DNA from: Octopus vulgaris
Taxonomy: Eukaryota
Direction of reading: 5' to 3'
DNA length: 64,000 bases
NCBI GenBank assembly: GCA_951406725.2
Contig: OX597825.1
Coordinates: 37,386,001 to 37,450,000 of the forward strand
Part shown: positions 1,699-49,722 of the stretch, piece by piece
How the letters are laid out: every line of letters starts with the position of its first letter
Numbering within the stretch: the first letter of the stretch is position 1
Translations under genes and position numbers: made by a program
Notes under the pieces: generated by a model
The model's database searches: none
What the model was told of the DNA's origin: nothing
The model's input: only the letters and a program-made list of their open reading frames with translations

Positions 1699-1790
1699 GC
1701 GGCTGAAAAGGGCTTTAAACTATCTGTTATGTCGATTATACATTGATGTAAGAATAAGTTGTTTTATAATGCTCGAAACATGTGTACCGC
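1699..1790 (+). ncRNA. Minimal type I hammerhead ribozyme motif (PLE pLTR type), probably inactivated by a core substitution
   Basis: Stem I GCGG(1699-1702)/CCGC(1787-1790); core CTGAAAA (consensus CTGANGA); stem II GGGC/GCTC enclosing about 57 nt; GAAA(1775-1778); near-palindromic CATGTG; GUA cleavage triplet; (TA)n starts about 40 bp downstream. Confidence 0.7.
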
Positions 1791-1828
1791 GACATCCTTT
1801 GTGTTCTGTTTTTTATTTCATTTGATAC

Positions 1829-1936
1829 ATATATATATATATATATATATATATATATATGTGTGTGTGTGTGTGTGTGTGTGTGTGTGTGTGTGTGTGT
1901 GTGTGTGTGTGTGTGTGTGTGTGTGTGTGTGTGTGT
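1829..1936. repeat. (TA)n followed by (TG)n microsatellite
   Basis: Directly visible. Confidence 0.98.
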
Positions 1937-2187
1937 GGATAACATCAATTTAACACCAAGTGGTTTAGCGCATAAAAACCAGGGATACAGTAAAAATTAA
2001 TACACGAATATAAGAGAGTGTTCACTATGTGGTCGACTCTTGCGCTAAAAATAGATCCGCTATGGTCTCAACCACCAAGAATTGTTTCCAAGGAGAATTA
2101 GCACAATTCTTGGTGGTTGAGACCATAGCGGATCTATTTTTAGCGCAAGAGTCGACCACATAGTGGACACTCTCTTATATTTGTGTA
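1937..2187. mobile_element. Fold-back module: 85-bp inverted arms, 17-bp spacer, unique left lead, embedded in microsatellite (probable truncated PLE with inverted pLTR)
   Basis: 2001-2085 is the reverse complement of 2103-2187 with 2 mismatches; (TG)n on the left, (TA)n on the right; PLE origin inferred from shared architecture with the hammerhead-bearing modules. Confidence 0.75.
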
Positions 2188-2460
2188 TATATATATATAT
2201 ATATATATATATATATATATATATATATATATATATATATATATATATGCATGTATGTATATCTGCATATAAATATATGTATATATATGCGTATATATGT
2301 ATATATATATATATGCATGTACGTATATATGTATATATATATATATATATATATATGCATGTATGTATATATGTATATATACATGTATATAGATATGTAT
2401 ATATATATGCATAATTCATACATACATGTACATACTTATATATGTATCTACATATGCACA
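2185..2460. repeat. (TA)n/(TATG)n compound microsatellite
   Basis: Directly visible. Confidence 0.95.
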
Positions 2461-3246
2461 TATGGGTATAGGATATGGATGTGTACGTAATCTCTCATAA
2501 TAATTATCGATGGATGGAATTTATAAAATTATCTTAATACATCACTACGTGCGAGTCCACAAAATCACATGTTTCTCACGATAATGATCCTTATTTCTGG
2601 AATGATAGCACTATAGTCCGAAGTATACATAGACATCAGGTGGATCATGGTTCAAGTGTTCATTCCTTCGAGCGATATAGCACTATCTTTGGGAGCAACA
2701 AATATATAAGTCAACACACACTCCTCCCTCACCTTTATCGTTAACATTCCTTTCTCTCTTTCCATCATCTTCTATTCTTTCCTATCAAATGCACACAAAA
2801 CTGCCCACATACACCAATAAACCTTTTGATTTCTAAAAATTGATAAACATCTTCAGTTGTATATTCCTTGCTTACAAAGTTAGTTCCATCTTTGAACTGC
2901 GAGTTGTTTGATAGTTTCTTATCAGCTACCACAGGTTTTTTGCACACCACAAATTTGCAATATTTTCAACCAGATTTCGAAAGTCAAACGACAATATGCT
3001 TTTAGTCTGGTGAGAGTGTAATACAAGATCAGCCACACCCTGAGATATTTATGCAATTAGTTTTGATATATATGCATGTGTAAAGCAAAGTAACCCTCTA
3101 CGGCTTGCAGTATTGTCTAGTTCTTTTGTAATGCATTCATTCAAAAATTAGTATTTACCTTATGTACTATTTGTTAAATTGTTTGTAAAATGTGTATATA
3201 TTTCTGTATATATTACCTTGTAAATTTATATATATGTATACATGTA

Positions 3247-3458
3247 TCTCTCTCTCTCTCTCTCTCTCTCTCTCTCTCTCTCTCTTCTCTCTTTATGTAT
3301 ATATATGCATATTAATATGTATATATATATATATATATATATATATATATATATATATATATATATATATATATATATAGATATATAAAATATATACATA
3401 TATACGTATATAAAATATATATATATATATATATATATATATATATATATATATATAT
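3247..3458. repeat. (TC)n and (TA)n microsatellites
   Basis: Directly visible. Confidence 0.95.
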
Positions 3459-45960: not shown

Positions 45961-46369
45961 TTATCCGACCCTTACAATTCCAACCATCCCATAGCCCGTA
46001 TTGCCCAGTCTTTTGATTCAGTGATTTTATGACTTTGATTTTAAGTCTTTTGCGACATCACATATAACAATGTCTTAAATTCAAATGCTCTCCGTTGTAA
46101 TCCATATGCCTACTTAATCATATTACAATCTTGGAAATTCTCGCCAAAGAGGACAAAATATCAGAATGAAGTTAATAGCTGAAGGTAAGTGATAGTTAAG
46201 AGGGGCAAATGAGAGTATATCTATGAGTTAATTCCATAAGTCAGGGTAGCAAATGCAGCGAATTTCAAAGGTTGGTTAGAAAATATAATGAAAATGCTGG
46301 AGAAATATAATTAAGTATGCACGTGTTGATTTGTTAAATATCATATAAGTTCTATGTGATATACTTTTT

Positions 46370-46572
46370 AGGGCAGTGAGAGACTGAATAGTTTAAGCGT
46401 CGAACAAAATGCGTTGTTGCATTTCTTCAAGCCTTAAAGTCTTGATGTCGACTTTGCTTTTCATATCTCCATGGTAGATAAAACAAACTACTAGTTAAGT
46501 ACTAGGACAAATGATAATGTATAATCCATCTCCACACAAAGAGGCTGGACTTGTGCTTAAATTGGAAACATT
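46370..46572 (+). mobile_element. Old SINE family B copy followed by a 30-bp tandem duplication (46559-46620)
   Basis: GTCGACTTTGCTTTTCAT box and GCTGGACTTGTGCTTAAATTGGAAAC tail. Confidence 0.6.
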
Positions 46573-48580
46573 TGTTGTATGATTACAAAAATTAGAAACA
46601 TTTATTGTATGATTACAAAATTCAGAGACAATGATAGAGCATCATCCTCATCACCACCAGACCTGCTAGAAATATGTATTAAATATATTCAAAGTCACAT
46701 TATGACATACTACAATTGTATAGCAAAAACGATACCTATTGGATATTGCATTCTTTGGTAAGCTATCTTCGATCATATTTCCAATCTATCAGGGTTAACC
46801 TATATCTAACCAATAGCAATCTCAGCGACGGCGATGAGTGAACAACCTTTGTTGTTGATTCAGTAACTTATAATTTTCTCCTACGTCTTATTATTTCTAT
46901 CATTCTTCATAACCCTGCTAATAGAAAGTCAAATAAGAACAATTTCAGGTATTATCATACATAATGTATCGGCTGTTGTCTGCATTGAAAGGTAAGTTTT
47001 CCTGTTCATAGTAATTAAGTGCAATGTGTAATTTTATTAGTATTTTTAATGTTCACTTTGAGTCGAGTATACTTTTGCGTTTCCCATACATCTGGACTTT
47101 ATTATAGCAAGTATCTCTTATGTTAAGCAACTCTGAATACCTTTGTTATTCATTATTCCATTATCATTCCCGGTGTTGGCTATATTCAAACTAAATGACA
47201 TACAGACAATCTAATTAACATCAATGCTTTTGCTCGTGTCTAAATGCCTGTTTAGTTTTCATTTTGTATGATGTAGTACATATTGGAAAATTTCCTCAAA
47301 ACCTTTGTTAAAACCAAAGCATTTAAAACTCATAAAACCTAATGTTCCTCTCAAGTTAAGATTTATTCCTTTATGATTTACAAAAATTAGACATTAATTA
47401 GCATGATAAAACTGACAGATCCAGAGGTCACAATTTATAGAAGCGTATAGGTGTGGGTTATAGCTAAAGCCAAATTTGCGATGAAATCTGTCATAGAAAT
47501 TGATTAAAAATGCTTTGTTAACTTTCTGTTTAAGTTTATTAATTTACCTCACCTTTAACAAGCCAACGAGATAATTTTTCAGTTGCTCGTCTCTTTGTAT
47601 GAGCTGCAGATCGTAGTTGAGCGCAGTTTGCGGTTGAGTCTATAACATCTAGTATGATGCAAAGCGTGCATTTCCCTTTACCTGATGGGTAATATTGACT
47701 GTGAGCCGCCCAACTCAAGGGTTAGTGAGGGGTTTAAGCCTCAGTGGCCTGGGAACGATTTTCAACATCGATAATGAAATTTCGAATAGTTTGTTTTAGG
47801 CTCGGGGTTTGGCCAACTTCTAGGAAATATTGAAATAACAGTGCGACAGATGAAGTTACAAGTTCCGACATAAACTATACAGGTCATTAACTTAGTTTAT
47901 CCTGTTTAACCGCTCAAATCCATGAACCTGTTCTACATGCTCTCTTTCAGATTCCGAAGAGAATTGATTTGTGCCGTTCATGTTATTGTTTGTTATCGAT
48001 CGTCGGCCGAGTCCATCATAAAGAACGCTTTACCACTTCCGTTTGTAATGTAAGGTAGTTAAGCTTATCTTTTTTGTCTAGTGGCTGTCTCATAAAACAC
48101 AATGTGCCAGAGGAGGTAGCACTGACTTATGACAGGCACCTTTGGGAGCCCCAAATTTCTATCAGAGCAGTAGCAAAAGAGAGACAGAGAAAAGGCAAAC
48201 AAAAAAATAAGAATTAAGATTTGAATTAAGAGCCACAATTCTTTATTGATAAAACTAAATTAATTGAGGAAGTTGAAGCATAGCTATGTGCTGACTAAGG
48301 TTTTAGGAGGATTGAAAATAATTCTGTGGAATATTCAAATGATAAACTGCTAATGAATAGCTCTCAACAAACCTATGTTCAATCATGCTACATAATCTCT
48401 ACTTTGTAGAGATTATGTAATAATTCTTGCCCAGTCTGACATCAGAGTTGTTCAAAGGTGCTTTCAGTTGCTGCAGTTTCTATTTGTGGCAGAAAGCGAA
48501 AGTTGCGGCATATTTCGCCCAGTTTCGATGGTGAGTTTTCTTCAACGATGGATGAGATATCCTCGCTTTTTTCATGTTAA

Positions 48581-48660
48581 AGCACACACGCACGCACACA
48601 CACACACACACACACACACACACACACACACACACACACACACACACACACACACACACA
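48581..48660. repeat. (CA)n microsatellite
   Basis: Directly visible. Confidence 0.98.
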
Positions 48661-48874
48661 AACTATTAGGTTTTATATAATTTCATAGTTATACTTTGTT
48701 TTATTTATATAATATTTTAACATACCCGATTATTATCTGACATGTTATCTTATATATAGTGGGTAAATATGTTTTATTTTACAAAGGAAAATTCTTAAAT
48801 ATTCATTCATAAGATTTCCCTTTTCCAATATACACATCATACTTAAATTACTTGTCTAATAAGGTTACATGAGA

Positions 48875-49535
48875 CACATGCATCAGAACCACATGTAGGC
48901 GACTTGGTGATCTCATATCATGATAAACAGCGCACGAACTTGCTGCTCAGATAGAATTTTCTTTAGGTCAAGTAGACCATCCCGCTCAAGAGGTCCGTAT
49001 ACATTACAAGTCATTGGCTCTCATGGCTTCGGATCTTAACTGATTAGAAGTGTTATCATATACATGATTTGTCCTGGTGGCTGAGGATATATGTATGTCT
49101 AATTATAAGAATAAGTAGTGAGTGAGGGCATCATAGCTATGTATCGAGTGAAATTCTTTGGAATTTGAATAATTCACCTTCGGAAATATGGGCGTTTCGT
49201 TATTATTGTCAATATTGGTAATAATACAGCACATGTCATCAAAGTGACGCTGGGGTTCAAATATACGAAACCCAATATACCCATCACGAACACCCGTCTG
49301 ATAAGGGTACACCAGGCACATGCATCACAACCATATGCACGCCACATGGTGATTTCATATCAAGATAAATAATGCATAACCTTCCAGTTGGGGCTCAGTT
49401 ATAATTTTCTTCAAGTCAAGTTGTCTATCCCGCGCAAAAGGTCGCTGAATAAGGGTTGTTTAAGGATGTTGAACGAAACATTCATGTTTCCAGAGGTGAA
49501 TTATCCAAAGAATTCCTTTCAACACATGGGTATCA
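48875..49535. mobile_element. Cluster of three fragments of one interspersed repeat (probably a retroelement 3' region)
   Basis: 48875-48995 resembles 49318-49443 (direct); 49133-49200 is an inverted copy of 49470-49533. Confidence 0.65.
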
Positions 49536-49722
49536 TACAGTTCTATATTTAAGAGCTGAGGAATTATGCACATTGTTTATATTATTTACATTTGATGGAT
49601 ATTTGTCCTCATCTTGTTTGTTATTAACACAACGTTTCGGCTGATACACCCTCCAGACTTCATCAGGTGTCTTGGGAAAATTTCGAACCTGGGTTCTCAT
49701 TCCTAAGGTATTTTCGATGCTA
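49535..49722 (-). mobile_element. PLE-type 3' end (pLTR) adjoining (AAT)n
   Basis: Contains a compact hammerhead; 5' side joins an (AAT)n tract. Confidence 0.7.
49626..49671 (-). ncRNA. Compact minimal type I hammerhead ribozyme motif
   Basis: Minus strand: GACAC CTGATGA A GTCTG gagggtgtat CAGCC GAAA CG TT GTGTT; stem I GACAC/GTGTT, stem II with one mismatch, palindromic AACGTT stem III. Confidence 0.8.

Follow-up and report, generated by a model that had tools for sequence, protein, structure and literature searches.

The 64,000-nucleotide stretch of Octopus vulgaris DNA analysed here (contig OX597825.1, positions 37,386,001 to 37,450,000; hereafter the window) is AT-rich animal DNA (34% GC) with many microsatellites, from an assembly of 2.8 Gb in 227 contigs. 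An earlier, sequence-only reading had proposed that nine sites in this window carry type I hammerhead ribozyme motifs, each with a different palindromic stem III that might act as a family-specific self-recognition code. Every one of these sites was examined in its letters and used as a genome query for relatives. Seven of the nine belong to dispersed repeat families (approximately 300 to 4000 search candidates each) that carry complete type I hammerheads with a palindromic stem III, in agreement with the proposal that such motifs occur in several unrelated Penelope-like element (PLE) or retrozyme-like families. The hammerhead-bearing features of the window are as follows.

1489..1876, forward strand: copy of family F1703 with a hammerhead at 1698-1791 and a (TA)n end; 1318 candidates, the top 40 at 94-97% identity.
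18322..18537, forward strand: copy of family F19551 with a decayed hammerhead at 18409-18457; absent from the sequence-only list.
18532..18866, forward strand: copy of family F18561, 5'-truncated within stem II at ~18532, with a (TA)n end; 758 candidates.
18963..19289, reverse strand: family F19082, a forward copy with a hammerhead at 19001-19087 (minus) plus an inverted 5'-truncated copy; 3147 candidates.
19481..19760, forward strand: second copy of F19551, with a hammerhead of decayed core at 19510-19570; 181 candidates; likewise absent from that list.
19738..19914, reverse strand: family F19805, a 3' half GAA-AGCGCT-A at 19798-19812, in a foldback from an inverted truncated copy; 296 candidates.
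20773..21403, reverse strand: copy of family F21088 and an inverted partial copy; full hammerhead at 20993-21092; 393 candidates.
30320..30355, forward strand: old decayed minimal hammerhead, of the ACGT type in its relatives.
36163..36367, forward strand: 5'-truncated copy of family F36194 with a 3' half GAA-ACAATTGT-A-gtgat at 36194-36210; 1420 candidates.
37607..37707, forward strand: hammerhead-like single-copy relic with stem I gccggt/accggc, a damaged core and GAAA, and an original stem III that is not recoverable.
49534..49830, reverse strand: body of family F49666, preceded by (AAT)n, with a minimal hammerhead at 49626-49671; 4017 candidates and 15 sites in a 1.2-Mb genome sample.

The stem III sequences of the seven families are ACATGTGT (F1703), ACCTAGGT (F18561), ACGATCGT (F19082), AGCGCT (F19805), ACACGTGT (F21088), ACAATTGT (F36194) and ACGT (F49666). 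F19551 (ATTGATCAAT, with stem I gtttag/ctaaac in the hammerhead at 19510-19570) is an eighth window family, present in two copies, that had escaped notice. The CUGANGA / GAAA / UH core and helices I and II are complete in the family majorities and in intact copies, and the window copies are mostly decayed: three of the seven pass the search descriptor, one has an intact core with a damaged stem I, and three are 3' halves. For example, the F1703 hammerhead has a 65-nucleotide stem II domain and the cleavage triplet GUA, and its core reads CTGAAAA (CTGAAGA in the family), with G8 mutated to A. F18561 is represented by the 3' half GAA-ACCTAGGT-C-ctaga at 18561-18577 and has the complete motif elsewhere in the family, and in relatives of F19805 the short hammerhead is complete, its stem III being AGCGCT or a form derived from it by CpG decay. 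The inverted copy of F19082 holds a further half motif at ~19239 (+) that had been overlooked, and the F21088 hammerhead has a 73-nucleotide branched stem II.

Several of the originally quoted stem III segments require correction. At 1779 the stem is not CATG or CATGTG but the eight-nucleotide wobble palindrome ACATGTGT, and AACGTT at 49631 wrongly takes in A14 and H17 around the actual A-CG-U (ACGT). The quoted CGATCG (~19007) and CACGTG (~20999) equal the majorities of F19082 and F21088, whereas the window copies read ACGATGGT (CGATGG), in a hammerhead with intact core and damaged stem I, and AGACGTGT (GACGTG). Two of the nine sites did not hold up as described. CCATG at 30399-30403 was misassigned as a stem III: there is no GAAA there, and in five weak relatives the 3' half directly follows the core (~30343). 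A DNA search of the genome with the relic at 37691 returned only the relic itself; the 12-nucleotide palindrome rebuilt for it includes a guessed inserted (A) and has 18 genome matches against four in the control, none resembling the site. Also rejected were GAAACATGT at 21111 as a second half-motif (the family majority is GAAAAATGT) and GAAAGCGCT at 23680 and 33998, which lies inside other repeats without a core. With Rfam, no hammerhead model appears in the 150 best of the 189 window matches, and in eight family loci none reaches the gathering score; the window matches listed are sub-threshold microRNA models on microsatellites and one foldback only.

A relaxed type I descriptor has five matches in the window, compared with a mean of 0.54 in 200 block shuffles, none of which attained the observed value. 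In three of these matches stem III departs from a palindrome by at most one mismatch (0.085 in the shuffles), and half-motifs composed of GAAA plus a palindrome number 36 against 21.3 ± 4.4 expected. A random sample of 120 evenly placed 10-kb genome stretches (1.2 Mb, with eight shuffles as a control) was searched with a type I descriptor that ignores stem III palindromy (cut-off score of at least 18). This search found 44 hammerheads against 2.0 ± 1.4 in the shuffles, a 22-fold excess. Self-complementary stems III occur in 33 of the 44 compared with 0.25 in the shuffles, an approximately 130-fold excess that places palindromy far above chance (26 perfect palindromes, seven G-U palindromes, seven one mismatch off and four of odd length). 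At both scales, the motifs exceed shuffled sequence rather than occurring at its rate. In many of them the stem II domain spans 43-100 nucleotides and folds as an extended or branched helix, and extrapolation from the 44 gives ~100,000 near-intact motifs per genome.

The carrier elements have the insertion structure of PLEs. Copies are variably 5'-truncated and often joined to an inverted truncated copy (4-17 of ~25 loci per family), F1703 has a one-sided tail, and in six families (TA)n lies just 3' of the copy at 13/24 to 23/25 loci (54-92%) against a background of 19%. Two lineages have a PLE open reading frame (ORF) remnant upstream, in sense, of a hammerhead: in locus L206 it lies ~820 nucleotides from an AGCGCT motif with an F19805 tail, and in L280 (cluster 19) it lies 438 nucleotides from another hammerhead. 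A search with the L206 protein returned 13,562 candidates, and of the 150 scored, 10 keep a 775-codon frame free of breaks, which matches RVT_1 and GIY-YIG; Pfam gave no match on three PLE fragments. A young PLE family (L346-L348, L359-L361, L160) has this intact reverse transcriptase (RT)-GIY-YIG frame of 775 codons in many identical copies. The linker motif of the ORF suggests a putative Neptune-type label (PMC8557442). Natural tandems also occur, as dimers or trimers of 259-533 nucleotides and 0.8-1.4 kb, and no long arrays were seen in the loci examined. Six same-strand, same-family pairs are spaced 259-533 nucleotides apart, and the F21088 tandems have motifs 0.8 and 1.4 kb apart. The remaining window families are probably also PLE members, some of them possibly non-autonomous.

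As had been anticipated, the palindrome is fixed within families. The family-majority palindrome is exact in 111 of 177 copies, variants are almost all single-site decay, and only one of the 177 carries a different perfect palindrome. Non-CpG positions of the inner stem III diverge at 82 of 807 sites (10.2%), compared with 553 of 7526 (7.3%) in the flanks. Because the inner positions decay like flanks and most copies are exact, this fixation is what descent alone predicts, and the genomic copies look like neutral relics. In the young F1703 family, a G-U intermediate palindrome is itself fixed (21 of 25 copies).

We consider it probable (approximately 0.72) that these elements are PLE-derived or PLE-mobilised relics with dimer-type palindromic hammerheads, in which the palindrome is a symmetry constraint. 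The window would then hold the decayed remains, truncated at the 5' end, of many retroelement families that PLEs likely gave rise to or mobilised, and the likely reason for a palindromic stem III would be that cutting requires two identical copies, in tandem on one transcript, to pair with each other. In the master elements, a read-through RNA with two units would fold as a double hammerhead with stems III and I formed between units, and cleavage, perhaps protein-assisted, would release unit-length RNA. Palindromy follows from symmetry here: a strand exchanged between identical tandem units has to be self-complementary. The double-hammerhead geometry exchanges stem I as well (PMC4209133, Figure 1 legend; PMC6466107), so the partner is read through both arms, and any specificity rests on stem I plus stem III. 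The original dimer-recognition argument overlooked this swap, as well as the fact that partners normally lie in tandem in one transcript. One change in stem III breaks two pairs, so the palindrome drifts slowly, and this drift would proceed via G-U intermediates, as in ACACGTGT to ACATGTGT to ACATATGT or ACGATCGT to ACGATTGT to ACAATTGT, with stem I, stem II and the flanks changing faster. Most families would not cross-react, but this would come about incidentally, from pairing in cis and divergence in stem I, and would owe nothing to a palindrome code under selection.

Folding predictions agree with the proposal that stem III forms solely between two copies. None of the 10 monomer folds contains stem III, and as an isolated hairpin it is predicted to cost +2 to +6 kcal/mol for lengths of 6-8 nucleotides and to be impossible for ACGT. 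Eight-nucleotide stem III homoduplexes of the window families are predicted at -6 to -11 kcal/mol, and in three of four natural tandems the double hammerhead is favoured over two monomers by 4.7-8.2 kcal/mol; the fourth has a 16-nucleotide hairpin. Thus, these motifs are predicted to fold and cleave as dimers. Alternatively, the eight-nucleotide class might belong to non-autonomous retrozymes and be no different from other invertebrate type I hammerheads, cutting well as monomers, with palindromy retained as an optional route to cutting as dimers. Retrozyme hammerheads of coral and mussel do cut as monomers, and the axolotl HHR_Amex2, for which 22% monomer cleavage is given, shares with this class a two-base-pair stem III with a tetraloop, together with a U-U pair at the stem II base (PMC7229834). 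Moreover, ORF-less tandem units of 260-1400 nucleotides occur, and the long stem II domains could provide stabilising contacts. We nevertheless regard monomer cleavage as unlikely to be the norm, because palindromy in 33 of 44 motifs needs selection for dimers, stem III is missing from every monomer fold, the ACGT class is unable to close a hairpin, and the insertions are 5'-truncated and inverted as in PLEs rather than forming long arrays.

A number of observations weigh against PLE-derived, dimer-type hammerheads as a complete account. Dimers may not be obligatory for the eight-nucleotide class, because invertebrate hammerheads with a two-base-pair stem III cleave as monomers (PMC7229834). 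The loci hold 14 inverted same-family pairs and only 6 in tandem, so most genomic copies are without a cis partner. An ORF link is shown for only one of the seven confirmed window families (the F19805 lineage), and upstream searches of three long loci of F21088 and F19082 found no PLE ORF (3/3 negative), so such families may be non-autonomous retrozyme-like units. The youngest intact-ORF family retains AGCGCT with a non-canonical core, having U3-A8 and GCAA instead of GAAA in all four copies seen. In addition, GAAA (29 of 708 divergent in pooled counts) and the CpG positions of stem III (13 of 206, compared with 58 of 308) are better preserved than the flanks; these counts are confounded by family age and top-hit choice, and they leave room for some selection on the copies.

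Comparisons between families were made with a set of 35 hand-picked from 231 descriptor hits in 1.92 Mb. This set takes in clusters of at least two members and self-complementary singletons, divides clusters 0 and 5 by stem I, and still holds some related pairs; outside it are F19805, cluster 6 (the 16-nucleotide monomer hairpin), the 24 singletons that are not palindromic and most of those with one mismatch. Among its 595 family pairs, stem III is fully paired (G-U allowed) in 42, and only two combine a compatible stem III with compatibility in both of the swapped stem I helices, so the families are predicted to be largely orthogonal. One stem I helix also matches in eight of the 42 stem III-compatible pairs, compared with 24 of the 553 others (odds ratio 5.2), which points to kinship, not displacement. 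We found no sign of selection for orthogonality among families.

This orthogonality could be taken as a two-part dimer address, in which stem I and the stem III palindrome together ensure that dozens of co-resident, simultaneously active families cut only their own RNA, and which is kept by selection. If true, such an address would prevent trans cutting or hijacking of another family's RNA and would constitute a natural library of mutually orthogonal dimer ribozymes. Most heterodimers are indeed predicted to be 8-22 kcal/mol worse than homodimers, and palindrome-sharing families mostly differ in stem I. However, the lack of character displacement, the sufficiency of random divergence over 4-7 base-pairs for the observed orthogonality, and the little need that cis pairing leaves for an address make this explanation very unlikely.

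More improbable still is the original model, in which each family has its own orthogonal barcode consisting solely of the stem III palindrome. Its attraction is that no two of the seven confirmed window families share a stem III sequence, that palindromes are fixed inside families, and that 20 of 21 cross pairs are not fully paired (in a table with F19551 in place of F19805). The exception is F1703 and F21088, whose stems III cross-pair fully, with a predicted heteroduplex (-8.5 kcal/mol) more stable than the F1703 homoduplex (-6.0 kcal/mol). The 35 families have 21 palindromes among them, and identical palindromes occur in 22 of the 595 pairs, against 18.4 expected for random same-length palindromes with C15.2 kept (P(≤observed) 0.86) or 5.1 with C15.2 free. 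The claim that palindromes differ between families as an orthogonal code thus fails. Short-loop motifs with ACAGCTGT have 317 genome matches and long-loop motifs with ACGATCGT have 369, each compared with one in the reversed control, and they represent at least four and at least eight distinct lineages, respectively, as judged by eye among the first 100 matches listed for each. ACGT is common to the two most abundant families of the random sample and to most metazoan minimal hammerheads (PMC4209133 supplement), and the alignment in that paper has ACGU in most rows, AGCGCU in shrimp, 10-nucleotide palindromes and two palindromes within Aedes. AGCGCT is retained between L206 and an ORF family only 67% identical in protein, and 20 of 24 eight-base palindromes have the form ACR..YGT and are interlinked by transitions via G-U states. 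The sequences therefore do not support a family barcode, and the palindrome would instead be a symmetry constraint common to the families. Finally, a genome rich in AT and in repeats could throw up such motifs by chance or as a side effect of foldback DNA, as might be suspected from the two window sites that sit in foldbacks, the one misassigned and one unverified site and the mere 1.7-fold enrichment of half-motifs alone, but this reading is refuted for seven of the nine sites and has virtually no standing overall, given the 22-fold and 130-fold excesses in 1.2 Mb, the 317 and 369 pattern matches against one per reversed control, and foldbacks that consist of inverted copies of the same elements.

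Further repeats and hammerhead variants were encountered during this work. F49666 is a composite of a 75-nucleotide tRNA-like head, (AAT)n and a minimal hammerhead body with a sharp 3' end (window 49534-49830; L107-L131; L226-L345). The head has A- and B-box-like motifs. It is present in 17 of 25 loci, with the body alongside in 10 of 13 head-bearing loci of the random sample; ARAGORN calls a tRNA in only two of the 25, and Rfam in none. With ~35,000 copies by extrapolation and inverted copies in 17 of 25 loci, F49666 is a candidate PLE-mobilised short interspersed nuclear element (SINE). A fragment of a retrotransposon without long terminal repeats (non-LTR) at L130:239-1198 (zf-RVT, below cut-off) has an (AAT)n end that adjoins an F49666 body. 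Among the variants, cluster 3 (e.g., L276, L300, L340) is an abundant minimal hammerhead with a CCGACGA (U4C) core and ACGT (13 matches in 1.2 Mb), and cluster 7 (e.g., L272, L267) has a U3-A8 core (TTGAAAA), ACGCGT and a tandem at 362 nucleotides. Retrozyme-like tandem units of 259-533 nucleotides are present in L060, L165, L160 and L330, with stems III of 8-16 nucleotides, the longer of which can close as monomers.

The window also holds a near-perfect 190-base-pair foldback at 2000-2188 (92%; sub-threshold MIR2670 match), which may be an inverted insertion or resemble a miniature inverted-repeat transposable element. A SINE-like repeat has five copies (15486-15653, 21677-21885, 23638-23757, 51831-51942 and 52984-53129), and long trinucleotide tracts at 55782-58810 yield Thr/Pro/His-rich frames with strong skew. 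Long LTR-retrotransposon-like open frames occupy L229:2631-7426 in a random-sample stretch.

At the level of sequence, these findings settle the idea from which the analysis began: the palindrome appears to be a shared symmetry constraint and not a barcode. The ~100,000 near-intact motifs extrapolated, in dozens of families missed by Rfam, are a natural data set for the drift of a self-pairing helix via G-U intermediates and a pool of predicted orthogonal dimer ribozymes. The young family with an intact ORF and a non-canonical core may help to show what hammerheads do in PLEs.

No paper proposing a self-recognition code or heterodimers was found, nor anything on point for octopus hammerheads or PLE-mobilised tRNA SINEs, in a literature search that reached few subscription papers. 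The window elements are an already described kind of sequence, since palindromic, dimer-type PLE hammerheads have been published. Hammerheads of PLE pseudo-long terminal repeats (Cervera and De la Pena 2014; PMC4209133) have palindromic positions 15.2-16.2 and loop 3, act as dimers with low activity, and come in an extreme variety of families per genome. The octopus motifs share with them the type I topology, the palindromic stem III, the mostly single motifs, the many divergent families per genome, the dimer requirement (here predicted), an extra base after A9 and the U3-A8 core variant. They differ in that many families have a stem II of 43-100 nucleotides, often branched, with an eight-nucleotide palindrome, compared with loops II of ~3-9 nucleotides in rows of the published alignment, and in the ~100,000 near-intact motifs per genome extrapolated here. 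This branched stem II and the tRNA-like-headed family are the less described features.

Neptune-type endonuclease-positive PLEs (Craig et al. 2021; PMC8557442) have an RT, a CX2-5CxxC-type linker and GIY-YIG, with 5' truncation, an inverted copy and a one-sided tail. The elements described here resemble them in the RT-linker-GIY-YIG order, the 5' truncation, the inverted truncated copy at the 5' end, the one-sided tail and the (TA)n bias, and differ from them in that most window families show no ORF link and the youngest intact-ORF family has a non-canonical core. For one PLE hammerhead, cleavage was found to be protein-assisted and dispensable for insertion in vitro (PMC11167929).

Among animal retrozymes, the coral and mussel hammerheads cleave as monomers, and those of axolotl depend on dimers or work better as such (PMC7229834); the case has been made that animal non-LTR retrozymes derive from PLEs and are non-autonomous (Li et al. 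2026, 10.64898/2026.07.22.740005). As in these non-LTR retrozymes (Cervera and De la Pena 2020; PMC7229834), type I hammerheads occur in the octopus on non-coding units a few hundred bases long, some of which lie in tandem; in contrast to them, the octopus elements are mostly dispersed truncated or inverted singles, known from genomic copies alone. The SINE-like SM-alpha elements of schistosomes combine a promoter with a hammerhead (PMC6765202). F49666 differs from SM-alpha in its minimal ACGT motif, its (AAT)n spacer and its dispersed copies with PLE-type inversions rather than satellite arrays, and resembles it in coupling a tRNA-like head with a hammerhead.

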